Virus record (IMG/VR): IMGVR_UViG_3300045988_007046
Location: 1 to 51,479 of that record
Origin: a virus
Taxonomy: Duplodnaviria; Heunggongvirae; Uroviricota; Caudoviricetes
Length of the DNA: 51,479 nucleotides
Reading direction: 5' to 3' (one strand)
The position numbers were made by a program, and so were the translations under genes. Below, piece by piece: positions 2,204-45,807 of this stretch (position 1 is its first letter; each line of letters begins with the position of its first letter). The notes beneath the pieces were generated by a model. The model saw nothing but the letters and a program-made list of their open reading frames with translations, had not been told where the DNA came from and ran no database searches.

Positions 2204-2452
2204 ATGGCAACTATCCGCGCTACTGTCAATGCCTATGGCTGTTATACTCTGGACGTTAAATTCGATATTGGTGGAACTGATGAGTGTTTTTCATTAGTGA
2301 AGACAGTTATCAAACAAGTTATTCCAGATTATAACCCTACTGATGACTTCTGGAAAGATGCTGTAAAAGAGGCATTAAACGACGAGCATCACTATCATTA
2401 CTGGGGTGACTTGATTGTTTCCCTGTACTACAATAAACAAGGTTACAACTAA
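2204..2452 (+). CDS. hypothetical protein
   Basis: 82-aa ORF preceded by cassette copy 4; terminator downstream. Confidence 0.55.
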   Translation: MATIRATVNAYGCYTLDVKFDIGGTDECFSLVKTVIKQVIPDYNPTDDFWKDAVKEALNDEHHYHYWGDLIVSLYYNKQGYN

Positions 2453-2490
2453 TCGACGCAGCGGGGCTAAATAGCCCCAGATACCTCAAC

Positions 2491-2517
2491 AGCCCCTATT
2501 TAAAGGGGCTTTTTTAC
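2491..2517 (+). terminator. rho-independent terminator
   Basis: AGCCCCT-ATTTA-AGGGGCT hairpin followed by TTTTTT; a second GGGGCT/AGCCCC hairpin sits at 2463-2480. Confidence 0.6.
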
Positions 2518-2519
2518 GT

Positions 2520-4100
2520 CTATTGAATCCTTATACAATCCCTTTCCAGAATCTTATCAGACCTTAAAAGCAATAACTCTATAGTCTACTCTATAACCTC
2601 TTATCAAATCAACTTAAATAAAAGCCAATAACCCCCAGAAAGGGGATGGCCCATTTAAACGCTCTATAAAGCTCTATAACAGCCTTATCAACCTAACTTA
2701 AGGGATTGCATTAACCAACCTTAAAAAGCTCTTTACAGGGCTTTATAGAGACTTAAAAGAATCTTATAAGGGTGTAAGCTTTATCATCTCGTTAGTATCT
2801 TGTGAATAACTAAAAAGGGCTATGAGATAGGAATCTATCGAATCCTATTGTTAGTGTCTTAAAAGTATGTTATAGGGGCTTAAAAGTTACTTCAAAGTTA
2901 CGTAAAAGGGGTTATAAAGTTACGTAAATGCTAACCCCCTTAACAAATTCTTAACAATCCCTACATAGTTATGCTTGTTAGAGACTTGTTAGCCACTTGT
3001 TAAATCTCTGTTAAGACCACGTAAAAGCCTTGTAAGAGTCTTTGACATAGCCTTAAAAGTTCCTGTAAAGCCCTATAAAGAGGTGTCTGTATAGTTGGGG
3101 TGTAACTACTAGGAAGAGACTTAAAAGGGGCTATACAGAGCTATAGAGAGCTTTTAAGAGGTATGTTTAAGGAATCACTAAGAAGGGAAAGGGAACGATA
3201 AGAAAGAGATAGTGACCATGTTAATAGCTTGTTAAAAAGATTAAACACTTGTTAGAGACTTGTTAATTATCTTAACAAAATAACTCTTAAAAATTAACTT
3301 GTTAGCTCTTGTTAGTCATCTGTTAAGATTCTGTAAAGCCCATGTATCAACTGTTAAGAAACTGTTAAGCCCTTGTTAGTTCTGTTAAGAATCTGTTAAG
3401 ACCTATGAAGAGTTGTTAAGAGCTTGAGAGAGTTGTTAAGAAATTGTTAAGGATATTTTAAAATTTTGCAAAGTACTTGTAAGGGAGTTGTTAAGGGCTA
3501 CCAAGCAGATATACACCCTATTCAGATATTTTTGAGTTCCTTCAAAGACCCTAAAAAATGACTTGATAGTCCTATTTTATAAAAATTTTAAGATTCTGAA
3601 TAATTACCTAGACAGTCTTTTAAAAATACAGGTAATAACAGGCTTATAAGATACCTTGTTAGTACCGTGTTAGACCTTGTGAGATAAGGTCTGTAAAGAT
3701 ATTCCTGTTAAGTTTGTTAAAACAGTCTATATAGAGGCTTAGTAATACCTAGTGAACACCTATAGAGAGTAACATAGCTGACATAGAGATTAAGAGGTGT
3801 ATAGGAGCTTCTAAGAGGGTATAGAGAGATGGTTAAGGTGATTGTATAGGTTGTTTAGAAGGCTTGTTAGAAGAGTGTTTAGAAGGGCTATTTAGAAGGG
3901 TTATACAGAGGGCTATTAAGACCACTAGATAGTTACTAAGATACTATATAGTACTATATAACTATATAGAGAGTAAGATTAAGAAGGTTGTTAAGAAGGA
4001 TAGATATTTTATTCACATATGATGGTGACCAAGAGGTTGGGACAACCGATAAAATTTTATAAAAATTAAAAAGCCCCCAATTAAGGAGGCTCTTAAGATA
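2520..4100. repeat. 1.6-kb ORF-free iteron-rich region
   Basis: No ORF of 60 aa or more on either strand; dense degenerate direct repeats CTTGTTAG/CTGTTAAG/GTTGTTAAG (densest 2960-3050, 3216-3500, 3650-3730), tandem GTTTAGAAGG x4 (3863-3912), ACTATATAG x3 (3936-3965). Confidence 0.7.
4061..4091 (-). terminator. rho-independent terminator-like hairpin (minus strand)
   Basis: On the minus strand, AGCCTCC...GGGGGCT hairpin followed by a T-run, directly downstream of the 4103-4726 ORF stop. Confidence 0.4.
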
Positions 4101-4102
4101 TT

Positions 4103-4726
4103 TTAAATCAGTGTTTCCAGAACTGTCTTCAGTGATGACTTGGTTGTCTGATAAAAATGAGTAAATCCATTGTTGTTATCGAATATCTGCATCATGATAT
4201 CATCACCCTTGATTGGGTAAACTCGGATATCATAGTGAAAACCATTAAAGACACAAGAGCCATTACAGAATGCACTAAAGTCATCAACTGAGATATACTC
4301 TTCATGTCCTGTGATTTTTATACAAACGCCTTTACTCGGTCTCTTAGGGTTGATATCTTCCATCACAGACATACTCTGTCCACCAAGAGATACCATAGTG
4401 ACCACTTTACGGTTCTTCTGTTTAAAGTACATCTTAACTTTCTGCAAAGTGTCTTCATAGAATGGATAAGACTTCTCTACAAAGATTCCTTCAAGTGGCT
4501 CTTTACCATTTTCAACTTCTCGGTTATGCCGTACTGCAAAGATAATTTGTTCGAACCAGTCAAGATTTTCTTCGGAGAGTGCTTCCCGAACATCCTTCCA
4601 GTCAAGTACTAAGTAGTTACCTTCAACTTCTTTTAAGTTATCTTTTTCCATATCTATCACACCATTATCGTAAAACTTGATATTCTGGTACTGCGAATTT
4701 ATTACTATTATTCTTGATGAGGTCAT
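4103..4726 (-). CDS. hypothetical protein
   Basis: 207-aa ORF; overlaps the upstream gene by 62 nt, so the true start may be the internal Met near 4651. Confidence 0.5.
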   Translation of the reverse strand: MTSSRIIVINSQYQNIKFYDNGVIDMEKDNLKEVEGNYLVLDWKDVREALSEENLDWFEQIIFAVRHNREVENGKEPLEGIFVEKSYPFYEDTLQKVKMYFKQKNRKVVTMVSLGGQSMSVMEDINPKRPSKGVCIKITGHEEYISVDDFSAFCNGSCVFNGFHYDIRVYPIKGDDIMMQIFDNNNGFTHFYQTTKSSLKTVLETLI

Positions 4727-5129: not shown

Positions 5130-5547
5130 AAGCTCTCCGAATAACCCTATTAAGCATCTCTAAAGTCAGCTTTCCAGATTCTAAATGTGGCATAACAAGC
5201 TTTAAAGCTTTTTCAACATCATGCACAACATCTATTATACCTTCCGCGTAGGCTTCTACAAGGATATCTTTTACATTTTGTGATTTACCTTTTTGTGGTA
5301 TCACTAGACGCATATCAAACTCATTTGCTTGAGGATGGTTCTTACCACGCCAGAAACCGTCCTTATCAAAGCTTATAAAGTTATCCTCATTAAAATTAAT
5401 ACCACAAACCTTAAACTTATCTAAAACTATGCAGTTGAGAGGGTAATCATCACTTGCATCATTCATTCCAAGAAACTTAACAGTAGCTATATACCTCTGT
5501 GTCTTTGCATCTACAACGTCAAGCTCTTTACCTATAAGTTCTTTCAT
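5119..5547 (-). CDS. hypothetical protein
   Basis: 142-aa ORF; 11-nt overlap with the downstream gene suggests coupling. Confidence 0.5.
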   Translation of the reverse strand: MKELIGKELDVVDAKTQRYIATVKFLGMNDASDDYPLNCIVLDKFKVCGINFNEDNFISFDKDGFWRGKNHPQANEFDMRLVIPQKGKSQNVKDILVEAYAEGIIDVVHDVEKALKLVMPHLESGKLTLEMLNRVIRRAYEN

Positions 5548-5600
5548 TTCGCTACCTTCTAAGTTCCTACAAAGGGGCTATCAAGTAACCCCTCAAGTTA

Positions 5601-5825
5601 TTACTCAGATTTTTCAGTCTTCTTATCAGATTTCTTACTAGTCTTCTTCTCAGCTTTCTGTTCAGGCTCCTTCTCAGAAGTTGCCTTAATAACCATATCA
5701 AGAAGCTCTGATAAGTCACTCTTCAGAAGTGTTACAGGCTGCTCGTTGTAGAAGTTTTTGTCAAGATAAACTTTGAATTCTTCTATAGAAGGAAATCCAA
5801 AAATTGGTACAGGTGTCTTAATCAT
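5601..5825 (-). CDS. hypothetical protein (Lys/Glu-rich C-terminus)
   Basis: 74-aa ORF; C-terminal KKTSKKSDKKTEKSE tail. Confidence 0.4.
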   Translation of the reverse strand: MIKTPVPIFGFPSIEEFKVYLDKNFYNEQPVTLLKSDLSELLDMVIKATSEKEPEQKAEKKTSKKSDKKTEKSE

Positions 5826-5901: not shown

Positions 5902-6435
5902 CTATAATTGTAGGTTGCATTCTTTACTTACCTCTTCAAGTTTAACCTCAGAATCCTTAAGTCGTTTCTTATGAACTCTGAATCTTAGTAGTGAGATAAT
6001 GATACCAGCTAAAGGAACAGCATACAAGTACCATACATCATATACCTTTGCAGTAATCTGTGTGATAGTTAAATCTTGAGCTATGTAGCTGATTGCTGAT
6101 ACTGCCAGTAACATTGCTAAGAAGAACGCCAGTACCATAACAATACTTAGGCAGCCTCTGGCATGGTGTTCATGCTTAATACACTTATTCTTCTCTTCAA
6201 CAACCCTGTTGTAGTCATTTGTAAAATCTCTGTAGAAAGCTTTCAAGTATTCTTGAGTGTAGCCTTCAAAGCAACCTGTACCGTACCAATAATCACCACC
6301 AAAATGTGCTATGATACCAGTATCCCCATTTGGTTTGGTTACTCTTAGTGAAGTATGATGACCAGTCTTCTGATAATCTATCTTGTATCTTTCTTCGTAA
6401 ATCATTTCCCAACCCCTCTCAATCGTTTGTTCCAC
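5902..6435 (-). CDS. hypothetical membrane protein
   Basis: 177-aa ORF; hydrophobic stretch LSIVMVLAFFLAMLLAVSAISYIA consistent with one TM helix. Confidence 0.5.
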   Translation of the reverse strand: MEQTIERGWEMIYEERYKIDYQKTGHHTSLRVTKPNGDTGIIAHFGGDYWYGTGCFEGYTQEYLKAFYRDFTNDYNRVVEEKNKCIKHEHHARGCLSIVMVLAFFLAMLLAVSAISYIAQDLTITQITAKVYDVWYLYAVPLAGIIISLLRFRVHKKRLKDSEVKLEEVSKECNLQL

Positions 6436-11729: not shown

Positions 11730-12101
11730 ATGAAAAACAGAACAAACAAAGGCCAGTTTAAAAAAGGCCAGTCTGGAAACCCATCTGGAAGACCAAAAGG
11801 CTCTCGTAACAAAAGCTCACTTGTAAAAGCTCAACTGACCATTGATAATTCTGCTGAGTTTGCTGCAAAGTTGTTTGAGGCGGTTGTTACAAGGGATGCT
11901 GCTAAGCTTGCAGAGTTCGGTTTGACGACTGACGATGTAAACCTGAAGTCGATGATGGAGGCTGGTAAAACCATCATGACTCACTCAGCAGGTGAGATGA
12001 AAGCGATTGCAGCAGACACTAAGAAGACCCCTGATAATGGTGGTCAGTCTCAGACAGATAACAAACCAACGTTCTCTGCTGTAGCGACTCTCAAAAAATA
12101 A
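11730..12101 (+). CDS. hypothetical small basic protein (possible DNA-binding)
   Basis: 123 aa; N-terminus KGQFKKGQSGNPSGRPKGSRNK is strongly basic and Gly/Pro-rich. Confidence 0.5.
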   Translation: MKNRTNKGQFKKGQSGNPSGRPKGSRNKSSLVKAQLTIDNSAEFAAKLFEAVVTRDAAKLAEFGLTTDDVNLKSMMEAGKTIMTHSAGEMKAIAADTKKTPDNGGQSQTDNKPTFSAVATLKK

Positions 12102-13763: not shown

Positions 13764-13840
13764 CTCTGTTTAGCTCAGCTTGGTAGAGCGTTCCGTTTGG
13801 GGCGGTAAGGCCGGAGGTTCAAGTCCTCCAACAGAGACCA
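13764..13840 (+). tRNA. tRNA-Pro (anticodon TGG)
   Basis: Hand-folded: acceptor CTCTGTT/AACAGAG with C1-G72, T-arm GGAGG-TTCAAGT-CCTCC, anticodon loop TTTGGGG, CCA encoded. Confidence 0.65.
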
Positions 13841-13847
13841 AATTAAT

Positions 13848-13925
13848 GTTCCAGTAGACAAAATGGTAAAGTCACCACTCTTTCAAAGTGGATATCTGAG
13901 GGTTCAAATCCCTTCTGGAACGCCA
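13848..13925 (+). tRNA. tRNA-Glu (anticodon TTC)
   Basis: Acceptor GTTCCAG/CTGGAAC, anticodon arm CCACT-CTTTCAA-AGTGG, T-loop TTCAAAT, CCA encoded. Confidence 0.75.
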
Positions 13926-13930
13926 GTTTT

Positions 13931-14004
13931 GACAGAAGACCAATTACAGCAAACTTAATCTACTCATCTGACACGAAATCGGACAAAGAAGATATTTGGT
14001 CTGG
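13931..14004 (+). ncRNA. structured spacer element E1 (CAGAAGACC...GGTCTGG family)
   Basis: 5' GACAGAAGACCAA pairs with 3' TTGGTCTGG; conserved internal ACAGCAA. Confidence 0.35.
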
Positions 14005-14015
14005 TCATTGAGAAT

Positions 14016-14092
14016 TGCGGGTATAGAGAAAGGGCGTCTCACATGTCTCATTAGCATGGTATCGGCAGGTTCGACTCCTGCACCCGCCTCCA
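14016..14092 (+). tRNA. tRNA with CAT anticodon (Met or Ile2), with a 1-72 mismatch
   Basis: Acceptor TGCGGGT/ACCCGCC (U1 opposite C72), anticodon arm CATGT-CTCATTA-GCATG, T-arm GCAGG-TTCGACT-CCTGC, CCA encoded. Confidence 0.55.
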
Positions 14093-14097
14093 ATTTT

Positions 14098-14158
14098 GCA
14101 GAAGACCGTATTCAGCAACAAAATACTTTTTGCGGATAAAAGAAAAAACACGGTCTGG
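14098..14158 (+). ncRNA. structured spacer element E2 (CAGAAGACC...GGTCTGG family)
   Basis: 5' GCAGAAGACCGT pairs with 3' ACGGTCTGG; internal TTCAGCAA. Confidence 0.35.
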
Positions 14159-14169
14159 CAATGTATTAA

Positions 14170-14246
14170 GGTTAGGAAGCACATAAGGTATGTGCGGTCG
14201 CCTGTTAAGCGAATGGCACAGGGTTCGAATCCCTGACTAACCGCCA
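14170..14246 (+). tRNA. tRNA-Asn (anticodon GTT)
   Basis: Acceptor GGTTAGG/ACTAACC, D-arm GCAC/GTGC, anticodon loop CTGTTAA, T-arm CAGGG-TTCGAAT-CCCTG, CCA encoded. Confidence 0.7.
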
Positions 14247-14255
14247 AATTTAAAT

Positions 14256-14343
14256 GTGTCGTTATCCCGTAGATGGTAGCGGTGGGGACTGTAAATCCCT
14301 TGTCATTGAGACTCGGTAGGTTCGACTCCTACACGACACACCA
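14256..14343 (+). tRNA. tRNA-Tyr (anticodon GTA), long variable arm
   Basis: Acceptor GTGTCGT/ACGACAC, anticodon arm GGGGA-CTGTAAA-TCCCT, long variable arm, T-arm GTAGG-TTCGACT-CCTAC, CCA encoded. Confidence 0.75.
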
Positions 14344-14348
14344 ATAAA

Positions 14349-14426
14349 GGTTATGTAGTTTAATTTGGTTAAAATACTCCCCTGTCACGGGAGATGATGA
14401 GGGTTCAAATCCCTTCGTAACCGCCA
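14349..14426 (+). tRNA. tRNA-Asp (anticodon GTC)
   Basis: Acceptor GGTTATG/CGTAACC, anticodon arm CTCCC-CTGTCAC-GGGAG, T-loop TTCAAAT, CCA encoded. Confidence 0.75.
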
Positions 14427-14432
14427 ATTTTG

Positions 14433-14478
14433 AGAGGGCTATTTAGCCCCTCCCTTAAAGAGTTCTTACGAGTATTCT
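14433..14478 (+). promoter_or_regulatory. paired hairpins in a tRNA spacer (possible processing or termination signal)
   Basis: GGGCT-ATTT-AGCCC hairpin followed by CCCTTAAAGA...TCTTTAAGGG inverted repeat enclosing GTTCTTACGAG. Confidence 0.4.
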
Positions 14479-14487
14479 TTAAGGGAG

Positions 14488-14561
14488 CAGAAGACCAAAT
14501 ACAGCAAGAATGTATGAAATTTCAAGCCAATTTAATTTTGAAAATTTAAAACTTGGTCTGG
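14488..14561 (+). ncRNA. structured spacer element E3 (CAGAAGACC...GGTCTGG family)
   Basis: 5' CAGAAGACCAAA pairs with 3' ACTTGGTCTGG; internal ACAGCAA. Confidence 0.35.
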
Positions 14562-14574
14562 CTCAACAAATTTA

Positions 14575-14706
14575 CAGAAGACCGTTTACAGCAAAACTTA
14601 AACAATCTATTTCTCCGGTAAAGAAAAGGCGAAGGTTCGATTCCTTCACTCGGCAGATGTCGAGTTGGTGTAATGGTAGCACTTAAGATGATAAACAACG
14701 GTCTGG
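14575..14706 (+). ncRNA. structured element E4: CAGAAGACC...GGTCTGG closing helix enclosing a tRNA-like module (Y-RNA/YrlA-like candidate)
   Basis: Closing helix AGACCGTT (14579-14586) with AACGGTCT; inside: perfect T-arm GAAGG-TTCGATT-CCTTC (14631-14647), 7-bp hairpin ACTCGGC-AGAT-GTCGAGT (14648-14665), D-arm-like GTGT-AATGGTA-GCAC (14668-14682). Confidence 0.4.
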
Positions 14707-14707
14707 T

Positions 14708-14851
14708 AATTATCTTTGTAGATAAGTTATTAAGCTTACCTGTGAGTATGCGACCACAAAGGGTGAAAGGGTAAATTCTAGATTTAAACCCAAAAAGGCA
14801 CATCGCTACAGACCTTAAGCAAGTCTGGGTAGCTTATCTACAAAGATAATT
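14708..14851 (+). repeat. 19-bp perfect inverted repeat enclosing a ~106-nt segment
   Basis: AATTATCTTTGTAGATAAG (14708-14726) is the exact reverse complement of CTTATCTACAAAGATAATT (14833-14851); interior holds a CAGAC...GTCTG hairpin. Confidence 0.6.
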
Positions 14852-14855
14852 TAAT

Positions 14856-14931
14856 GGAAGTGTAGCAGAATGGTGATGCGGCAGACTTTTAATCTGACAG
14901 GCGATGGGTTCGAATCCCTCCACTTCTACCA
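14856..14931 (+). tRNA. tRNA-Lys (anticodon TTT)
   Basis: Acceptor GGAAGTG/CACTTCT with G1-U72, anticodon loop CTTTTAA, T-region ATGGG-TTCGAAT-CCCTC (only 3 clean T-stem pairs), CCA encoded. Confidence 0.6.
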
Positions 14932-14936
14932 AAAAT

Positions 14937-15013
14937 GGTTCAGTCGCAGATAAGGTAATGCAAGGGTTTCATAAGCCCTATGAATGTGGGTTCGATTCCC
15001 ACCTGAACCTCCA
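14937..15013 (+). tRNA. tRNA with CAT anticodon (Met or Ile2)
   Basis: Acceptor GGTTCAG/CTGAACC, anticodon arm AGGGT-TTCATAA-GCCCT, T-arm GTGGG-TTCGATT-CCCAC, CCA encoded. Confidence 0.7.
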
Positions 15014-15014
15014 A

Positions 15015-15090
15015 GCTGGTATAGTTAAGAAGGTTATAACACTCCCCTGATAAGGGAACATCGGTGGTTCGATTCCACCTACCAGTACCA
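15015..15090 (+). tRNA. tRNA-Ile (anticodon GAT)
   Basis: Acceptor GCTGGTA/TACCAGT, anticodon loop CTGATAA, T-arm GGTGG-TTCGATT-CCACC, CCA encoded; starts 1 nt after the preceding tRNA. Confidence 0.7.
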
Positions 15091-15097
15091 ATTTCAA

Positions 15098-15136
15098 TAA
15101 AGTTGTTGACATTGAGATGTGACTACTTTATAGTAA
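15098..15136 (+). promoter_or_regulatory. sigma70-like promoter candidate inside the tRNA array
   Basis: AATAAAGTTGTTGACA with TTGACA at 15106-15111, exact 17-nt spacer, TATAGT at 15129-15134. Confidence 0.55.
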
Positions 15137-15294
15137 CCTTAGTTTTCGTTGCGTAGCGTCTATTTTGCAAATTTAAAATAAATGCAAACGACAATGTTTT
15201 TCTGGCAGTAGCTTGATAGGCTAAACACCAGTGAGGTCTTCCAATCCCTCATCAAAGAATTTGGCGTACTCGCCCACGGTATGATTAATAAGGT

Positions 15295-15336
15295 GGGCAT
15301 CTTTAAGGGCTTTCTAAGAGAGTCTTTAAAGATAAT
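15295..15336 (+). promoter_or_regulatory. spacer hairpin (ATCTTTAA...TTAAAGAT inverted repeat)
   Basis: 8-bp inverted repeat enclosing GGGCTTTCTAAGAGAGTC; related to other spacer hairpins carrying TTCTTA/CTAAGA motifs. Confidence 0.35.
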
Positions 15337-15338
15337 TA

Positions 15339-15420
15339 CGGGGCGTATCTCAGCGGTCTTCTAAACCGCCGTTAACCGAGTAAGTGGAGTATGCGGGTTC
15401 GAGTCCTGCCGCCTCGACCA
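15339..15420 (+). ncRNA. atypical tRNA-like element (possible aberrant tRNA-Arg TCT or pseudo-tRNA)
   Basis: Good acceptor CGGGGCG/CGCCTCG, T-arm GCGGG-TTCGAGT-CCTGC and CCA, but the only anticodon-like hairpin GCGGT-CTTCTAA-ACCGC lies 7 nt after the acceptor (no room for a D-arm) and is followed by a 23-nt extra region. Confidence 0.3.
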
Positions 15421-15563
15421 ATTTAGTTAGCAGATTACTTAGACGACCTAAGCGTGTCTTCCTGTAAGGAGGTGGTCTGTATCTCATGTTTTCCAGAACA
15501 TGTAAATAATCTGAGAAGGGGCTTTACAGTGTTGCGAAAATACGGTAAGCTTCGAATTACAGT

Positions 15564-15646
15564 ATGGGACGATGTTAAGACTCTAAGGCATGAGCAACGG
15601 CCTCCAAAACCGTTTCAAAGGGGTTCAACTCCTCCGTCCCATGCCA
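15564..15646 (+). tRNA. tRNA-Trp-like (anticodon CCA) with extended D region
   Basis: Exact acceptor ATGGGAC/GTCCCAT, anticodon loop CTCCAAA (identical to canonical Trp loop), T-loop TTCAACT, CCA encoded; about 7 extra nt between acceptor and anticodon stem. Confidence 0.4.
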
Positions 15647-15659
15647 AAGTCTTATTAGG

Positions 15660-15750
15660 GGTAGGTAGCGGCTAATGGTAGCCAAACTGTCTTGAAAACA
15701 GTTGCCACTGTAGAGATACGGTGAGGGTTCGACTCCTTTACTTACCGCCT
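15660..15750 (+). tRNA. tRNA-Ser (anticodon TGA), long variable arm
   Basis: Acceptor GGTAGGT/ACTTACC, anticodon arm ACTGT-CTTGAAA-ACAGT, long variable arm, T-arm GAGGG-TTCGACT-CCTTT; 3' CCA only partly encoded. Confidence 0.65.
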
Positions 15751-15900
15751 AATAAGATTTACACCGTCCATGCTTGCTCGCATTTTCGGTTTATCCCTCG
15801 TGTATTGTCGTACACTGATAAAGCACCTAGTAGGTGTCACGGAGAAGAGATAATATCAAGCTCTCCAAAGGTTCTAGTCACCGGATTAAACAAGACTATG

Positions 15901-15925
15901 CAAAGACCTATTTAGGTCTTTTTAG
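15901..15925 (+). terminator. terminator-like hairpin inside the tRNA array
   Basis: AAAGACC-TATTT-AGGTCTTT followed by TTTTA. Confidence 0.4.
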
Positions 15926-16003
15926 AGGGCTTCTAAGGTTATTAGTCGCTTGTTGTGGAACCTTGTTGCTCAGGTTCTTAGAAGTTCTCTAAAAAGATTT
16001 AAT

Positions 16004-16082
16004 GGGAGATTGACGGCAACTTGGTAGACCTATCTCGCTTAGAACGAGATGCTTGAGGGTTCGAATCCCTTGTCTCCTACCA
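16004..16082 (+). tRNA. tRNA with Leu anticodon TAG but short variable arm (atypical)
   Basis: Acceptor GGGAGAT/GTCTCCT, Leu-like D-loop CAACTTGGTAGAC, anticodon arm ATCTCG-CTTAGAA-CGAGAT, only ~4-nt variable region, T-arm GAGGG-TTCGAAT-CCCTT, A73, CCA encoded. Confidence 0.5.
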
Positions 16083-16089
16083 AATTAAT

Positions 16090-16165
16090 GCAGGTGTAGC
16101 AAAATGGTTATGCGGCTGACTCTTAATCAGTAAGACGATGGGTTCAATTCCCTCCACCTGTACCA
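16090..16165 (+). tRNA. tRNA-Lys (anticodon CTT)
   Basis: Acceptor GCAGGTG/CACCTGT, anticodon arm GCTGA-CTCTTAA-TCAGT, T-region ATGGG-TTCAATT-CCCTC (same pattern as Lys-TTT), CCA encoded. Confidence 0.65.
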
Positions 16166-16171
16166 GACATT

Positions 16172-16247
16172 GGGGATGTAGTTTACATGGTTAAAACATA
16201 AGTTTTGCAAACTTAAGTACAGGGTTCAATTCCCTGCTTCTCCACCA
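16172..16247 (+). tRNA. tRNA-Ala (anticodon TGC)
   Basis: G3-U70 pair present; D-arm GTTT/AAAC, anticodon arm TAAGT-TTTGCAA-ACTTA, T-arm CAGGG-TTCAATT-CCCTG, CCA encoded. Confidence 0.75.
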
Positions 16248-16253
16248 ATTAGT

Positions 16254-16328
16254 GCATCCATAGTTTAAACGGGAAAATTACAGTCTTCCAAACTGAGGTT
16301 GAGGGTTCGATTCCCTCTGGATGCTCCA
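16254..16328 (+). tRNA. tRNA-Gly (anticodon TCC)
   Basis: Exact acceptor GCATCCA/TGGATGC, anticodon loop CTTCCAA, T-arm GAGGG-TTCGATT-CCCTC, CCA encoded. Confidence 0.7.
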
Positions 16329-16335
16329 AATTAAT

Positions 16336-16411
16336 GCTCCTATCGTATAATTGGCTATTACGGTTGCCTTGTAAGCAACTTATCAGGGTTCGAATCCTTG
16401 TGGGAGCACCA
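16336..16411 (+). tRNA. tRNA-Thr (anticodon TGT)
   Basis: Acceptor GCTCCTA/TGGGAGC, anticodon arm GTTGC-CTTGTAA-GCAAC, T-arm CAGGG-TTCGAAT-CCTTG, CCA encoded. Confidence 0.75.
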
Positions 16412-16414
16412 ATT

Positions 16415-16502
16415 CAGAGGTCAAGTGAAAGACCGCTGGTGTCAACTGAAGACCGTAACAAATTCCACGGAGTTGAGTTAGCGGCACAACTTCAGACCTC
16501 TT
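16415..16502 (+). ncRNA. structured spacer element E5 (AGAGGTC...GACCTCT closing helix, internal GAAGACC motifs)
   Basis: CAGAGGTC at 16415-16422 pairs with GACCTCT at 16496-16502; interior has GAAAGACCG and TGAAGACCG plus CCGCT/AGCGG complementarity. Confidence 0.3.
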
Positions 16503-16506
16503 TCAT

Positions 16507-16581
16507 GCTCGCTTAGTTTATATGGTAAAACATCACCCTTACAAGATGAAGAAAAAGGTTCAAGTCCTTTAGTGAGTACCA
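16507..16581 (+). tRNA. tRNA-Val (anticodon TAC)
   Basis: Acceptor GCTCGCT/AGTGAGT (with G-U pairs), D-arm GTTT/AAAC, anticodon loop CTTACAA, T-arm AAAGG-TTCAAGT-CCTTT, CCA encoded. Confidence 0.65.
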
Positions 16582-16582
16582 T

Positions 16583-16660
16583 GTTCCAGTATCCCAATTG
16601 GCAGAGGATGCAAGCTCAAACCTTGTATTAGTGACGGTTCGAATCCGTCTTGGAACACCA
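16583..16660 (+). tRNA. tRNA with Leu anticodon CAA but short variable arm (atypical)
   Basis: Acceptor GTTCCAG/TTGGAAC, D-loop CCAATTGGCAGAG, anticodon arm GCAAG-CTCAAAC-CTTGT, short variable region, T-arm GACGG-TTCGAAT-CCGTC, A73, CCA encoded. Confidence 0.5.
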
Positions 16661-16665
16661 ATTTT

Positions 16666-16741
16666 GCAGGATTAGTTCAAATGGATAGAGCAACAGTCTA
16701 CGAAGCTGTTAATAGGGGTTCGAATCCCTTATCCTGCGCCA
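16666..16741 (+). tRNA. tRNA-Arg (anticodon ACG)
   Basis: Exact acceptor GCAGGAT/ATCCTGC, anticodon arm ACAGT-CTACGAA-GCTGT, T-arm AGGGG-TTCGAAT-CCCTT, CCA encoded. Confidence 0.7.
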
Positions 16742-16758
16742 GATAAAAAGGTGATACT

Positions 16759-17001
16759 ATGCAAACATTAACAGTAGTTGAACATGAAAACTGTGAGAAT
16801 ATTGAGTTTGTCAGGGTCATTGGTGTTGAACACCACATTTTCTTAAAAGTAGGGTACTTATGTGACCCCGCTAGAGTAGAAAGATTTATACGTGATTGTT
16901 TTGGTGGTAGACAGCTAAAGAGTGTTATTTTTGAGACAGTTTTACCAGAAGGTTTAGAAACGAATAATAACATTTATCTCCTTACAAGGATTAGACGATG
17001 A
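16759..17001 (+). CDS. hypothetical protein embedded in the tRNA array
   Basis: 80-aa ORF starting 18 nt after tRNA-Arg; 4-nt overlap with the next ORF. Confidence 0.4.
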   Translation: MQTLTVVEHENCENIEFVRVIGVEHHIFLKVGYLCDPARVERFIRDCFGGRQLKSVIFETVLPEGLETNNNIYLLTRIRR

Positions 17002-17555
17002 GATATTTAAAATATGCTTCATGGATTTTCCTAGCTTTGCTAGAACCATTAGCAGCAACCTTAGCAGTTATCTTAGCACCTTTCGTAGTTCCATTTTACA
17101 GTGAGAAGAAAGGCCACTTACCTTTCGGATTTAGATGGATGGAGACATATGACAACCCAATTGATGGTGACGAAGGTCATATCGAACGATGGGCTAAGAT
17201 TAGAAAGATTGGTAAGCTGGGTGTCTACATGCAGAGAGTCGGATGGCTCTGGAGAAACAAAGCTTATAACTTCTCTTACCATGTATTAGGAAGAGATGTA
17301 AAAGATGTTACTAAGTGGAAAGGTAATATCAACGTAAGTTCTGACCCTGAAGATAATCAGACAGGTTATCTCCTAATGTGGAACAGTAATGCTTGGGGAT
17401 TATTCGCTTTTATCCCATCAATTAAAGTCTTTGGTAAACAGTTTTACTGGAGAATTTATATTGGATGGAAACTAAAAAGTGTTGTCCCAGAAGAAAGAGC
17501 ATTCTCAAGGGAAAGAGTTATGTTGGCATTCTTTATTCATCCACTGAGAAAGTAA
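16998..17555 (+). CDS. hypothetical membrane protein embedded in the tRNA array
   Basis: 185 aa; N-terminal hydrophobic segment WIFLALLEPLAATLAVILAPFVV; Trp-rich. Confidence 0.5.
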   Translation: MRYLKYASWIFLALLEPLAATLAVILAPFVVPFYSEKKGHLPFGFRWMETYDNPIDGDEGHIERWAKIRKIGKLGVYMQRVGWLWRNKAYNFSYHVLGRDVKDVTKWKGNINVSSDPEDNQTGYLLMWNSNAWGLFAFIPSIKVFGKQFYWRIYIGWKLKSVVPEERAFSRERVMLAFFIHPLRK

Positions 17556-17563
17556 AGATTTAA

Positions 17564-17639
17564 AGGGGATTAGTTTACAAGGTTAAAACCTCGGTCTTTG
17601 AAATCGAAGAAGTTGGTTCAATTCCAACATCCCCCGCCA
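17564..17639 (+). tRNA. tRNA-Gln (anticodon TTG)
   Basis: Acceptor AGGGGAT/ATCCCCC (weak 1-72 pair), D-arm GTTT/AAAC, anticodon arm TCGGT-CTTTGAA-ATCGA, T-arm GTTGG-TTCAATT-CCAAC, CCA encoded. Confidence 0.65.
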
Positions 17640-17641
17640 AT

Positions 17642-17720
17642 GCTCCATTACTCCAATTGGCAGAGAGGCCAGACTTAAAATCTGTGTTATGTATCGGTTC
17701 GAATCCGATATGGAGTACCA
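17642..17720 (+). tRNA. tRNA with Leu anticodon TAA but short variable arm (atypical)
   Basis: Acceptor GCTCCAT/ATGGAGT, D-loop CCAATTGGCAGAG (shared with 16583-16660), anticodon loop CTTAAAA, ~7-nt variable region, T-arm ATCGG-TTCGAAT-CCGAT, A73, CCA encoded. Confidence 0.5.
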
Positions 17721-17725
17721 AATTT

Positions 17726-17801
17726 AGCGGTATAGCATAACTGGCAATGCAACAGTCTCTGAAGCTGTCCTATTAAGGTTCAAATCCTTATGCCGCTGCC
17801 A
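17726..17801 (+). tRNA. tRNA-Gln (anticodon CTG)
   Basis: Acceptor AGCGGTA/TGCCGCT, D-arm GCAT/ATGC, anticodon arm ACAGT-CTCTGAA-GCTGT, T-arm TAAGG-TTCAAAT-CCTTA, CCA encoded. Confidence 0.7.
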
Positions 17802-17802
17802 C

Positions 17803-17830
17803 TTCTAAGGGTTCTTACGAGAGTCCTTAA
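17803..17830 (+). promoter_or_regulatory. spacer hairpin carrying the GTTCTTACGAG motif
   Basis: CTAAGG-GTTCTTACGAGAGT-CCTTAA; same loop motif as the hairpin at 14445-14478. Confidence 0.4.
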
Positions 17831-17832
17831 AT

Positions 17833-17908
17833 GTGGCCTTATCATAAATGGTAATGACCCATGCTGTGAACATGGTCTATACGGGTTCAAATCCCGTAGG
17901 TCACCCCA
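17833..17908 (+). tRNA. tRNA-His (anticodon GTG)
   Basis: Acceptor GTGGCCT/AGGTCAC, D-arm TCAT/ATGA, anticodon arm CCATG-CTGTGAA-CATGG, T-arm ACGGG-TTCAAAT-CCCGT, CCA encoded. Confidence 0.75.
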
Positions 17909-17913
17909 ATTTA

Positions 17914-17990
17914 TAGTCCAAGTAGCTTATATGGTTAAAGCGCGTGTCTGAAAAACATGAGAAGAGGGTTCAAATCCCACTGGACTACCA
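17914..17990 (+). tRNA. tRNA-Phe (anticodon GAA)
   Basis: Exact acceptor TAGTCCA/TGGACTA, anticodon arm CGTGT-CTGAAAA-ACATG, T-loop TTCAAAT; 3' CCA not cleanly encoded. Confidence 0.6.
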
Positions 17991-18006
17991 ATTTCAAAGG
18001 TGCTTA

Positions 18007-18741
18007 ATGAAAGAGATGACAGAACAAGGTAAGGAGATTTTTAATCTCTTAAAAACCGGTAAAGGGTTTTCTAACCCACTTATTACTGGTGCAGCAGTTC
18101 TCGGTGGAACCGTAGCTGCCTCTACATCACTTGTAAGCTCTATTAGTTCTGTAACAGACCCTACAATGCAGGAGAAACTTGTTGCTGCTGGACTTACAAC
18201 AGTCCTTCTAAACAGCTTTACAACAAGCCTTACAAGCACTACAGCAACTACTAAGACCCTGACAGACTACGGTCAAAAGTCTATTGATGAGTTTTCATCA
18301 CGTATGCAGGTAGCAAAGGGATATTCCAATGTTATGAGTGCAGCAGGAGAACAAGTTGGTTGTACACCGTTCAGTGGTATTATGGGTGTTGCTACAGAAT
18401 ATGGTCAAAAAGCTATTGATACAATTAACAGTACACTAGAGAGTGTTAACGATGTATTAAGTGACTTACAAGACGCTATTGATGAGGGTCTTGATACTAT
18501 TTCTGATTTAGCTAATCAGGCTGTTAGTAAGATTAATGAAGGTATTTCAAAGATTACAGCTTATGCAGATGAAGTTGTGCAGATGATTGAAGAAGAAGCT
18601 GCCCTTATTGCAGAGTACCTTAAAACGAATATCAATGGGTTCTTAGCAGGTATCTTACCAGACTGGTTTGACGATGCCTGTAAAACTGGTGTAATTGACA
18701 CTATTGCAACACCAGAAATGAAGAACGCATTACAGAAATAA
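18007..18741 (+). CDS. hypothetical Ser/Thr-rich protein embedded in the tRNA array
   Basis: ORF track gives 17944-18741 but that start overlaps tRNA-Phe; first ATG clear of the tRNA is 18007 (MKEMTEQGKE), preceded by AAGGTG; hydrophobic/Ser-Thr-rich N-half, acidic helical C-half. Confidence 0.5.
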   Translation: MKEMTEQGKEIFNLLKTGKGFSNPLITGAAVLGGTVAASTSLVSSISSVTDPTMQEKLVAAGLTTVLLNSFTTSLTSTTATTKTLTDYGQKSIDEFSSRMQVAKGYSNVMSAAGEQVGCTPFSGIMGVATEYGQKAIDTINSTLESVNDVLSDLQDAIDEGLDTISDLANQAVSKINEGISKITAYADEVVQMIEEEAALIAEYLKTNINGFLAGILPDWFDDACKTGVIDTIATPEMKNALQK

Positions 18742-18743
18742 AT

Positions 18744-18836
18744 GGAAGATTAACCCTAAAAGGTAAGGGAGCAGTTTGCTAAACTGCCAGTAGCTGAGAA
18801 ATCGGTGTACCAGTTCAAGTCTGGTATCTTCCTCCA
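18744..18836 (+). tRNA. tRNA-Ser (anticodon GCT), long variable arm
   Basis: Exact acceptor GGAAGAT/ATCTTCC, anticodon arm GCAGT-TTGCTAA-ACTGC, long variable arm, T-arm ACCAG-TTCAAGT-CTGGT, CCA encoded. Confidence 0.75.
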
Positions 18837-18840
18837 ATTT

Positions 18841-18916
18841 GAATCCGTGACAGAAATGGCTATGTGCCTGTCTGCAAAACAGGTTTATAAGGGTTCGAGT
18901 CCCTTCGGATTCTCCA
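18841..18916 (+). tRNA. tRNA-Cys (anticodon GCA)
   Basis: Exact acceptor GAATCCG/CGGATTC, anticodon arm CCTGT-CTGCAAA-ACAGG, T-arm AAGGG-TTCGAGT-CCCTT, CCA encoded. Confidence 0.75.
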
Positions 18917-19339: not shown

Positions 19340-19360
19340 TTCTATTTGCGGAGGTGCTTA

Positions 19361-45477: not shown

Positions 45478-45807
45478 TTAATCTGCCAACCTTAAATTGA
45501 AATTAACACCAAATTTTTCACATACTTCCAACATATACTCAAGGGAAACATTACCAGTGAGGTGGATTATGTTGGATACACGAGCTTGAGAGATACCACA
45601 AATTTTAGCGACTTGCTCTTGAGAAAGACCTCTGGATTTAATCTCTCTCTTAAAACGATGTGCAACGAAGTCTCTCATTTCGTCTACATCCATTGGACAA
45701 ATATAACTCTCCATTTCAGCCTCTCTATCAGCCTCCCAATCATCTTGTGGAGCATAAGGGTCAAAAACCTCATTCATCTTTCTTCTTCCGTTTGCGTGAA
45801 GTATCAA
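45478..45807 (-). CDS. helix-turn-helix DNA-binding protein (XRE-like)
   Basis: 109 aa; LSQEQVAKICGISQARVSNIIH is a classic HTH pattern. Confidence 0.6.
   Translation of the reverse strand: MILHANGRRKMNEVFDPYAPQDDWEADREAEMESYICPMDVDEMRDFVAHRFKREIKSRGLSQEQVAKICGISQARVSNIIHLTGNVSLEYMLEVCEKFGVNFNLRLAD

Follow-up and report, generated by a model that had tools for sequence, protein, structure and literature searches.

A gene-free region between convergent gene blocks

The window, i.e., the whole stretch of 51,479 nucleotides analyzed here, belongs to Felixounavirus and represents a Felix O1-like myovirus. Its + strand gene block stops at 2452 and its − strand gene block stops at 4103, both being convergent toward a gene-free region with terminators on each side; the genes flanking this region fall into small PHROG families without known function. 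The longest ORF on either strand within 2453–4102 is 35 aa, in agreement with an earlier sequence-only reading of this DNA, which had reported about 1.6 kb lacking any ORF of at least 60 aa. The region matches 286 phage records, nearly all of which are Ounavirinae, and is covered to at least 80% in 207 of them. The features of the locus, including a predicted direct terminal repeat (DTR), are as follows; slashes mark predicted boundaries.

2463–2516, + strand: terminator of the + strand gene block, two hairpins (terminator scan; a rho-independent terminator is annotated at this site in ASO1A)
2463–2478: hairpin 1 of this terminator, GGGGCTAAATAGCCCC
2491–2510: hairpin 2 of this terminator, AGCCCCTATTTAAAGGGGCT with a T run
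2511–2933, no strand assigned: unique non-coding arm, expected immediately internal to the right-end DTR copy in virion DNA; 14 CT-N4-AG units
2911–2960, no strand assigned: left cut-site block, ...ACGTAAATGCTA/ACCCCCTTAACAAATTCTTAACAATCC, predicted boundary between 2933 and 2934 (±2 nt)
2934–3502, + strand: predicted DTR, 569 bp (homology to the annotated DTR of UAB_69)
2973–3015, + strand: heptamer cluster A, four tandem 11-bp units (TGTTAR at 2976, 2987, 2998 and 3009)
3016–3215, no strand assigned: central DTR segment, mixed CT-N4-AG units (CTTAAAAG, CTGTAAAG, CTATAAAG, CTATACAG, CTATAGAG and CTTTTAAG)
3216–3495, + strand: heptamer cluster B, 16 same-strand TGTTA(A/G) sites over 270 bp, on one helix face with a period of 10.3 bp
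3494–3515, no strand assigned: right cut-site block, AGGGCTACC/AAGCAGATATACA, predicted boundary between 3502 and 3503 (±2 nt)
3503–4060, no strand assigned: unique non-coding arm, which would follow the left-end DTR copy; TGTTAG pairs at 3657/3668 and 3706/3715
4060–4094, − strand: terminator of the − strand gene block (gene 4103–4726; terminator scan; annotated in ASO1A and Michonne)

Scans for products of the region itself were negative. A search of 2300–4300 against Rfam (E ≤ 1) returned two sub-threshold matches, both on the flanking terminators, and no family, and a tRNA scan found no tRNA within the region. Small ORFs have been annotated here by some depositors; of six ORFs that reach 25 aa, five are interrupted in most relatives, and the sole survivor overlies the invariant right cut-site block (see below). 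Promoter-like sites for sigma-70 number 11, compared with 7.2 ± 2.4 in shuffled sequences, which is not above chance. IHF consensus sites are absent from the region.

Same-strand repeats and their helical phasing

The motif [CG]TTGTTA[AG] occurs 15 times and CTGTTAAG seven times in the region, giving 22 copies, all on the + strand; the count of more than 20 in the sequence-only reading was thus sound. Relative to the rest of the window, these motifs are 57-fold and 42-fold denser, respectively. Their core, TGTTA[AG], is present 27 times on the + strand and three times on the − strand (binomial p = 8e-6), with 20 of the 27 + strand sites inside the predicted DTR. The top-scoring 300-nt windows for this core all fall inside the region, the median elsewhere being 0, and clusters of the heptamer are found nowhere else in the 51 kb.

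Other units accompany the heptamers. CTTAAAAG is present seven times (13-fold density) and CTATAAAG three times (18-fold), and a purine-rich tract lies at about 3176–3210 in the central DTR segment. The 2511–2933 arm contains CTTAAAAG in four copies as well as CTATAAAG and others, with TATAGAG-type units on the − strand (2577, 2589, 2662 and 2672), and the 3503–4060 arm has TATAGAG on the + strand (3730, 3761, 3820 and 3965), four TTTAGAAGG units (3853–3899) and three copies of ACTATATAG. A fourfold tandem repeat had been claimed at 3863–3912: four GTTTAGAAGG-type units do exist, but at 3853–3899, about 10 nt to the left (TRF array 3854–3921, period 12–13). Three ACTATATAG-type units, previously placed at 3936–3965, were likewise found, at 3943–3969. 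Overall, the region is pieced together from CT-N4-AG octamers, of which there are 64, compared with 10.9 ± 3.4 (maximum 24) in a Markov-1 null model; these are spaced mainly by 10–11 or 20–23 bp.

The spacing of about 10–11 bp noted earlier for 3216–3500 is borne out by intervals of 10, 11, 20 and 31 bp between TGTTA(A/G)-type sites. The best-fit period of the 20 same-strand sites in the DTR is 10.3 bp (Rayleigh R = 0.84, p ≤ 0.0005 vs. random placement), and a three-site spacing pattern matches twice in the window, vs. 0 in 100 shuffles. In six relatives from four genera, the period of the array is 10.2–10.35 bp with R of 0.82–0.97. AA/TT periodicity in the DTR, a proxy for curvature, peaks at 11.15 bp and is therefore off the helical repeat, and for this reason strong intrinsic curvature is not evident.

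Conservation in relatives

The core positions of the motif are 92–100% conserved, compared with 77–82% for spacers, and 0.94 vs. 0.76 in distant genera (p = 1.6e-7); since alignment programs use repeats as anchors, the estimate for the core runs somewhat high. This heptamer also ranks first among k-mers in each genus when taken on its own, even in phages of Erwinia and Pectobacterium, whose surrounding DNA can no longer be aligned. At the place homologous to cluster A, all relatives have four or five units and indels are of 11 or 22 bp; likewise, 12 of 14 multi-base indels in the DTR are of about 11, 22 or 33 bp. The gap between the two heptamer clusters, 188–211 bp, is kept across genera.

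Both arms are also conserved. In the 2511–2933 arm, which is covered to 74–91% in other genera, the CT and AG of CT-N4-AG units are 0.93–0.99 conserved vs. 0.83–0.92 for N4. The 3503–4060 arm is the most conserved sub-region in Felixounavirus (93–98% identity vs. 87–90% for flanking genes). The non-coding block as a whole reaches 92–100% coverage at four of five loci from other genera and 63% at the fifth, L028, where the left flank is absent; flanking genes in the other-genus comparisons are 0–97% alignable, and 14–58% in most.

When the spacing signature was used to scan IMG/VR, 25 Ounavirinae relatives were recovered, each with 14–28 same-strand sites, together with 93 further, unrelated loci, which are mostly plain 9- or 11-bp tandem repeats. 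Taken together, the data support the view that the region is cis-acting non-coding DNA in which sites that proteins probably bind are arrayed in helical phase: phasing at 10.3 bp and strand bias coincide with conservation that is limited to the core of the motif. The sequence-only reading had proposed such an array on the grounds of phasing, and this part stands; the functions it attached to the array, in a replication origin, a partition site or transcription-factor binding, are not favored (see below).

The terminal repeat and the genome ends

Several lines of evidence from relatives place genome ends at this locus. Bal31 digestion together with run-off sequencing has located the ends of UAB_Phi87 and set its DTR at 608 bp (Bardina et al., 2016, PMC4837284), and the UAB_69 record has a 618-bp DTR annotated within the homologous gap. 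For Pr103Blw, a DTR of 581 bp was determined by PhageTerm (PMC8303462); PhageTerm also gives a DTR for H12. Exact repeats stand at both record ends of SeKF_63 (613 bp) and NBSal004 (694 bp), with identical boundaries, and an Erwinia-type contig has an exact 444-bp end repeat whose boundaries are alignable with the window. The first base of the SeKF_63 record is the DTR boundary, and position 17 of the H12 record aligns to 2939 of the window, the same offset as for SeKF_63. Whether genome termini map here, a check that had been proposed for this DNA, is thus answered positively in UAB_69, UAB_Phi87, SeKF_63, NBSal004 and the Erwinia-type contig. It is very probable that the virion termini and the DTR of the present phage lie in this region as well. 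The DTR is present as a single copy in this collapsed assembly, and would stand at both ends of the virion DNA.

The boundaries of the DTR are fixed: they are identical in independent genomes, differ by no more than 2 nt from the UAB_69 annotation, which is anchored experimentally, and can be aligned between genera, and both boundary blocks are present in the window, where the exact positions are predicted by homology. The left boundary is the same in SeKF_63 and NBSal004, lies at most 2 nt from that annotated in UAB_69 and can be aligned with the boundary of the Erwinia-type contig; two inverted heptamers, CTTAACA (2939–2945 and 2950–2956), lie immediately inside it. The right cut-site block is invariant over 22 nt in eight genomes of Felixounavirus, Mooglevirus and Suspvirus and is recognizable in Erwinia-type phages as GGCCACTAA/GTAGATATACA. 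Both cut-site blocks contain a ...CCCTTAACA element that points inward. The large terminase has been grouped with DTR-type terminases in UAB_Phi87, Felix O1, wV8 and HY02 (Bardina et al., 2016, PMC4837284).

A candidate protein for the array

Two genes outside the region are relevant to the cutting and recognition of genome ends.

11730–12101, + strand: DUF5681 protein, 123 aa (Pfam PF18932), candidate small terminase (TerS) and candidate reader of the array
19346–20962, + strand: large terminase (TerL), the presumed end-cutting nuclease (phrog_979, E = 1e-233; Pfam Terminase_6N and Terminase_6C)

The DUF5681 gene is 7.2 kb from the TerL gene, with an island of 25 tRNA genes between them. In three of five contexts, distant DUF5681 homologs are encoded immediately upstream of TerL, which is of the phrog_2/3717 type or of the phrog_38 type; the other two contexts are on short contigs with uninformative neighborhoods. 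A homolog with 62% identity is present in the Erwinia-type contig. The N-terminal motif GNPxGRPKGSxN is invariant, and G-R-P-x-G-S-x-N is found in 27 of 27 homologs. When the N-terminal peptide was compared with the PDB, the HMG-I(Y) AT-hook 2EZD was its sole match (10 identities in 14 residues, E = 0.24), and in the AlphaFold model (pLDDT 67.6) a basic, disordered arm precedes a helical hairpin. A Foldseek search of this model against the PDB gave nothing at E ≤ 0.001, no terminase and generic helical matches only, and the full protein sequence has no match among PDB chains or in NCBIfam. Literature searches covering DUF5681 and AT-hook small terminases turned up no account of a role for this protein.

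On this evidence from sequence and modeling, the DUF5681 protein appears to have about even chances of being the small terminase, and AT-hook-type reading of the array by this protein can be proposed tentatively. In the DNA examined, unrelated contigs have no phased arrays beside DUF5681 genes, and none of the unrelated array-bearing IMG/VR loci encodes the DUF5681 motif within the DNA retrieved. Among the 40 records listed of 224 that match, none in this phage group carries a small terminase annotation. A 66-aa ORF upstream of TerL was also considered and belongs to a family without known function (PHROGs, Pfam). The protein at 11730–12101, now the best small-terminase candidate, had already been named in the sequence-only reading as one to use in binding tests.

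A proposed concatemer junction and packaging platform

The region is probably a concatemer-junction and packaging region in which the array serves as a terminase platform with DUF5681 as its reader; for the component claim that the phased array is the platform of the packaging complex, we regard the odds as balanced. In concatemers, the right-end arm (2511–2933), one DTR (2934–3502) and the left-end arm (3503–4060) would form one block, which the convergent terminators would insulate from transcription. Terminase would cut at both DTR boundaries during packaging and the DTR would be duplicated, such that each virion DNA has a copy at both ends. The 20 same-strand heptamers on one helix face might be the assembly platform for an oligomeric phage protein, with the more generic CT-N4-AG units occupying the center of the array and the arms. 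By bending or wrapping the DNA, the bound oligomer would label the junction and bring TerL to both conserved cut-site blocks. The DUF5681 protein, acting as small terminase, would be the likeliest binder, and AT-hook-like reading in the minor groove might recognize the A/T-rich cores of the heptamers. Protein binding to the array, the identity of the binder, minor-groove reading and wrapping are all suggested by the features described above. A further step, which we consider speculative, is that DUF5681 represents an unrecognized small-terminase family that reads DNA through an AT-hook-like arm and wraps the junction on a phased array of more than 20 A/T-cored sites within the terminal repeat, with TerL then cutting at two conserved sites in inverted orientation. 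If so, its mode of recognition would be distinct from that of the helix-turn-helix small terminases studied so far, and the locus would offer a defined substrate for work on the cutting and duplication of short terminal repeats.

Alternative roles of the array

An end-specific structural or protective role apart from terminase recognition is the foremost alternative, although an unlikely one. The array might carry a protein for end protection, ejection control or recombination, might shape the DNA at the end that is packaged last and ejected first, or might promote annealing of terminal repeats into concatemers. Such a role is consistent with the location of the array in the DTR, which always occupies the tips of the genome, with one-face phasing, which suits any cooperative binder or curvature, and with DTR lengths varying by unit indels (444–694 bp), as expected if repeats mis-anneal. 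However, it comes without a candidate protein, the AA/TT peak at 11.15 bp gives little sign of strong intrinsic curvature, and simple annealing would depend on sequence identity and have no need of a conserved heptamer whose footprint is specific to certain bases.

A replication origin, in which the repeats would be initiator iterons and the AT-rich stretch an unwinding element, could coexist with the DTR but is also improbable. The units have cores of 7–8 bp on a 10–11-bp pitch in more than 20 copies, and are not iterons of 17–22 bp; no initiator, helicase-loader or primase gene adjoins the region; and transcription converges here with no promoter signal above chance, whereas phage origins usually need local transcription. 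The origin proposed in the sequence-only reading is disfavored on these grounds, even though this is a long, conserved and A/T-rich stretch of non-coding DNA that contains phased repeats, has a 40-mer of 85% AT at 3258–3297 (top 0.03% of the window) and includes two relaxed DnaA boxes (TTATTCACA at 2801 and 4009, 1.2 kb apart), compared with 0.3–0.6 expected. T7 has secondary origins near both ends, and the promoters phiOL and phiOR are seen near the ends of its sequence. GC skew is uninformative on an origin at this site because its turning points, at about 10–11 kb and 43 kb, track gene-strand switches.

An array for a transcription factor or nucleoid protein, or a plasmid-like partition site, is very improbable. 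Such a site would titrate or position a regulator, e.g., the HTH protein at 45478–45807, or a host protein; an HTH_3 regulator is indeed encoded in the window, and phased direct repeats of 10–11 bp resemble ParR/parC centromeres and some repressor arrays. But promoters are at chance level, terminators bracket both sides, heptamer clusters are found nowhere else in the 51 kb and hence there is no regulon, the phage is virulent, and neither par genes adjacent to the region nor IHF consensus sites within it were found, and neither function, as suggested earlier, is supported. The least credible explanation is that these are functionless slippage-prone end repeats, or a source of small RNAs or peptides: unit-sized indels do indicate that slippage happens and depositors' annotations include small ORFs, but the block is kept more fully than neighboring genes in most cross-genus comparisons, its conservation footprint is limited to motif cores with a spacing signature common to genera, most of the small ORFs are broken, and the terminator-insulated region has no Rfam match.

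Packaging at the junction remains the preferred reading, and its interest is broader than this phage. Junction recognition, two-site cutting and repeat duplication in short-DTR phages are unsettled even for T7, and the locus offers a short and deeply conserved cis-element whose sites recur once per helical turn, together with two cut-site blocks and a candidate protein. Felix O1-like phages are widely used for typing and biocontrol of Salmonella and E. coli, and the boundary sequences let annotators fix the true ends of hundreds of arbitrarily opened Ounavirinae records.

Comparison with known systems

In the Felix O1-like phages with mapped DTRs (UAB_Phi87, UAB_69 and Pr103Blw), the locus and the flanking genes are the same and the boundary sequences agree within 2 nt, such that the region is the ortholog of theirs. 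The predicted DTR of 569 bp is shorter than those of UAB_Phi87 (608 bp), UAB_69 (618 bp) and Pr103Blw (581 bp) because of unit indels. The literature on Felix O1-like DTRs gives their existence and length, and no description of the array, phasing, CT-N4-AG units or cut-site blocks was found in it. The location of the terminus is already known, whereas the phased array and the TerS candidate appear to be undescribed.

ParR/parC centromeres and iteron origins have direct repeats on a pitch of 10–11 bp, on which a cooperative nucleoprotein complex forms. The present region differs in that it has neither adjacent par or rep genes nor a promoter inside the array, and in that the phage is virulent and the array coincides with mapped genome ends. 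The small-terminase recognition sites pacL and pacR of SPP1/SF6 and the R sites of lambda cosB likewise have short repeated boxes about one helical turn apart beside the terminase cut, which are thought to wrap around oligomeric small terminase. However, those phages have cohesive or headful-permuted ends and few boxes, in or beside the terS gene, whereas more than 20 sites, exact DTR ends, two cut sites and a TerS candidate gene about 8 kb away are found here.

The junction of T7 and T3, with a terminal repeat of 160 bp and arrays of the CCTAAAG heptamer, was reportedly described by Dunn and Studier in 1983 and by Chung and Hinkle in 1990. To our knowledge, the function of the heptamer array of T7 is still not established, and for this reason placement at a junction alone is no proof of a packaging role. 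The specificity of T7-type packaging resides near the termini (PMC3276506). Re-analysis of the T7 sequence found 13 copies of CCTAAAG on one strand and 0 on the other, and the present region resembles T7 in having a short exact DTR, a non-coding junction and heptamer copies on one strand inside and beside the repeat. The two differ in the motif, TGTTA(A/G) here and CCTAAAG in T7, and in its arrangement: the T7 units have a pitch of about 13 bp, which is out of phase with the helix, and most of them fall beyond the 160-bp repeat, whereas those here have a period of 10.3 bp and lie mostly inside a repeat of about 570 bp. Also, the T7 junction has the promoters A0, phiOL and phiOR, whereas the junction here is promoter-poor and bracketed by terminators. 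Overall, the array is an analog of the heptamer arrays at the T7 junction and not a member of that group.

Relationship to Felix O1-like phages

The non-coding region at window positions 2453-4102 matches 286 phage records in a database comparison, nearly all of them Ounavirinae (Felixounavirus, Mooglevirus, Suspvirus, and Erwinia and Pectobacterium phages), so that the window is, by sequence, about 51 kb out of a ~87-kb Felix O1-like genome. At least 80% of the region is covered by 207 of these records, with a best identity of 93.5%. The window also contains TerL (large terminase), portal and a tRNA island of 25 genes typical of Felix O1-like genomes.

A Felix O1-type terminal region (88% identity) is also found at 135850-136521 of GenBank GU169904.1 ('Staphylococcus phage SA1', 147 kb), and Staphylococcus aureus is the listed source of a partial DUF5681 protein (P0022); both look like chimeric or contaminated records. 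GATC sites number 0 in the 51.5-kb window versus 147.6 +/- 12 in dinucleotide-preserving shuffles, pointing to strong counter-selection of Dam/MboI/Sau3AI-type sites. The cumulative GC skew minimum and maximum lie at ~10-11 kb and ~43 kb, both at gene-orientation switches.

Genome termini and direct terminal repeat

The original description of Felix O1 deduced short terminal repeats only from a mismatch in size and leaves this region undescribed (PMC3185647). Bal31 digestion and run-off sequencing of UAB_Phi87, a sister phage of UAB_69, located its ends and gave a direct terminal repeat (DTR) of 608 bp (PMC4837284). In the UAB_69 record a 618-bp 'DTR' is annotated within the homologous gap and aligns with the window. 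Exact duplications occur at both record ends of SeKF_63 (613 bp) and NBSal004 (694 bp), with identical boundaries (left ...AAATGCTA|GCCCCCTTAACA..., right ...GTTAAGGGCTACC|AAGCAGATATACA...), and an Erwinia-type contig, related at the protein level only, likewise has an exact duplication, 444 bp long, with boundaries alignable with these. PhageTerm DTRs are reported for Pr103Blw (581 bp) and H12; position 17 of the H12 record aligns to window 2939, the same offset as in the SeKF_63 record, whose first base is the DTR boundary. Whether genome ends map here, as the sequence-only reading had wondered, is thus answered affirmatively by UAB_69, UAB_Phi87, SeKF_63, NBSal004 and the Erwinia-type contig, and it is very probable that termini and DTR lie in this region, as already known for close relatives.

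Both boundary blocks are present in the window, which would place its DTR at 2934-3502 (569 bp, +/-2 nt), a placement made by homology because the assembly holds one collapsed copy. Among relatives (loci L006/L007, L017/L018, L024/L076 and L002) DTR lengths are 444-694 bp, versus the 569 bp predicted here; the differences represent gain or loss of 11/22/33-bp units, both boundary blocks being fixed.

Repeat organization of the region

Between the stops of a plus-strand gene (2452) and a minus-strand gene (4103), the longest ORF on either strand is 35 aa, bearing out the earlier description of the region as coding-free. The repeat observation is likewise confirmed, far beyond chance: there are 15 copies of [CG]TTGTTA[AG] and 7 of CTGTTAAG, every one of the 22 on the plus strand, at 57x and 42x the density in the other 49.8 kb. 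The core TGTTA(A/G) shared by both motifs (the heptamer) is found 27 times on the plus strand versus 3 on the minus strand (p = 8e-6), with dominant spacings of 9, 10, 11, 20 and 31 bp, and a scan of the whole window found no other such cluster outside the region. CTTAAAAG (x7) and CTATAAAG (x3) are enriched 13-18x. The tandem repeats reported earlier also exist, about 10 nt from the positions first assigned to them. More broadly, CT-N4-AG octamers make up the region as a mosaic: 64 were counted, most of them at spacings of 10-11 or 20-23 bp, against an expectation of 10.9 +/- 3.4 and a highest value of 24 in 1000 Markov-1 simulations.

Features of the region (window coordinates)
2491-2510 (+): terminator, convergent, bracketing the block
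2939-2945 and 2950-2956: two inverted heptamers CTTAACA, just inside the left DTR boundary
2973-3015: cluster A, four tandem 11-bp units
Between clusters A and B: DTR centre, ~200 bp, mixed CT-N4-AG units
3216-3495: cluster B, 16 heptamers, the last ending 7 nt short of the right boundary
3494-3515: right cut-site block AGGGCTACCAAGCAGATATACA, containing the right cut
3853-3899: TTTAGAAGG, tandem x4
3943-3969: ACTATATAG, tandem x3
4094-4069 (-): terminator, convergent, bracketing the block

With heptamers inverted at the left boundary and cluster B ending close to the right one, both mature 5' ends would start alike, reading (N1-5)CCCTTAACA..., a short terminal inverted element. Eight genomes from three genera carry the right cut-site block unchanged, and it can still be recognised in Erwinia phages. 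The arms (unique non-coding DNA at 2511-2933 and 3503-4060) carry other unit families. TATAGAG-type units (10 in the region versus 3 elsewhere in the window) lie on the minus strand in the left arm (2577-2672) and on the plus strand from 2744 rightwards (to 3965), so that on a large scale their orientation switches around the DTR.

No Rfam family or tRNA was found in the region, and a promoter scan of it gave promoter-like sites at chance level. The region has six ORFs of 25 aa or more; five of them are broken in the majority of relatives. The survivor, a 26-aa ORF (3436-3516, minus strand) intact in all 15 compared genomes, spans the right cut-site block and has probably been kept because of constraint on the DNA of that invariant block.

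A helically phased array

The heptamers in the window have a 10.3-bp period (R = 0.84, p <= 0.0005), and periods of 10.2-10.35 bp (R 0.82-0.97) are found in Michonne, phiSUSP1, Sf17, SP116, UAB_69 and Erwinia phage Hena2. The mix of 9-, 10-, 11-, 20- and 31-bp steps keeps all heptamers on one helix face over about 26 turns, and a spacing signature (11, 11, 11, ~190-210, 11, 20, 11 ... 9, 11, 20, 20, 11, 44) is common to several genera. In size, 12 of 14 multi-base indels in the DTR are about 11, 22 or 33 bp.

Across 16 aligned genomes, conservation at the six core positions is 0.92-1.00 versus 0.77-0.82 for adjacent spacers, and in three distant genera it is 0.94 versus 0.76 (p = 1.6e-7), figures somewhat inflated as aligners anchor on repeats. 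Alignment-free counting ranks the heptamer first among k-mers in each genus, even in Erwinia and Pectobacterium phages with surrounding DNA too diverged to align. A fainter footprint is seen for units in the flanks, where it centres on their CT and AG ends. Coverage of the non-coding block is 92-100% in four of five other-genus loci compared and 63% in L028, which is without its left flank; flanking genes are mostly much less alignable (0-97%; 14-58% in most comparisons). Taken together, these properties speak for a function of the array. In the preferred mechanism, to which we give an even chance, the phased array would be a platform for the packaging complex.

A viral contig with no DNA or protein similarity found to the window (L120, IMGVR_UViG_3300031707_000026, 53.6 kb) carries dense tandem and inverted GTTGTTAAGG arrays (~5230-5660 and 6100-6250) at a 10-bp pitch with GC-rich spacers between; the core motif is the same and the architecture different.

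The DUF5681 protein as a candidate reader

Among the matches listed (40 of 224 records), none has a small terminase annotated at this locus, and upstream of TerL the 66-aa ORF is labelled 'hypothetical' throughout. The protein at 11730-12101 (123 aa, DUF5681 domain) is conserved throughout Ounavirinae. In unrelated phage contigs, distant homologues lie directly upstream of TerL genes with an overlap of about 20 nt, and a third lies ahead of a TerL that belongs to another PHROG family; two further contexts, on short contigs, were uninformative. A small-terminase role for the DUF5681 protein is plausible, at about even probability. Here its gene (plus strand) is split from TerL (19346-20962) by the 25-gene tRNA island (13764-18916), and since the two genes overlap in unrelated phages, the island may be a later insertion between an ancestral terS-terL pair.

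K-G-x-S-G-N-P-x-G-R-P-x-G-S-x-N is common to 27/27 aligned homologues. In the PDB, this motif peptide matches a single entry, 2EZD, an HMG-I(Y) AT-hook bound to DNA (10/14 residues identical, E = 0.24). In the AlphaFold model (pLDDT 67.6) a helical hairpin follows a disordered basic arm; a fold search with it was uninformative. An AT-hook-like arm would suit units that, at every turn, offer an A/T core of 4-6 bp flanked by C/G bases, and such reading of the array by the DUF5681 protein is a tentative lead. The terminus location is known in close relatives; the packaging role of the phased array and the plausible terS assignment are proposals of this analysis.

Alternative readings and known systems

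An additional role as a replication origin is possible because of two relaxed DnaA boxes (TTATTCACA), one per arm at 2801 (-) and 4009 (+), and an 85%-AT 40-mer inside the DTR (3258-3297; top 0.03% of the window). The array resembles iteron origins in pitch but differs in unit length, gene context and coincidence with mapped ends, and the origin reading offered earlier is not favoured. The same differences apply to ParR centromeres, which have the pitch in common with it. A partition site and a transcription-factor array are also not favoured.

In SPP1 pac and lambda cosB, phased boxes lie next to the terminase cut, an arrangement that the array recalls, but the ends are of other types and the boxes far fewer. 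The same analysis of the T7 junction finds the CCTAAAG heptamer 13 times, always on the same strand, both within the 160-bp repeat and next to it, at a 13-bp pitch and sited among promoters. The T7 junction is, by comparison, an analogue of this locus, alike in placement and strand bias and unlike in geometry, motif and transcriptional setting.
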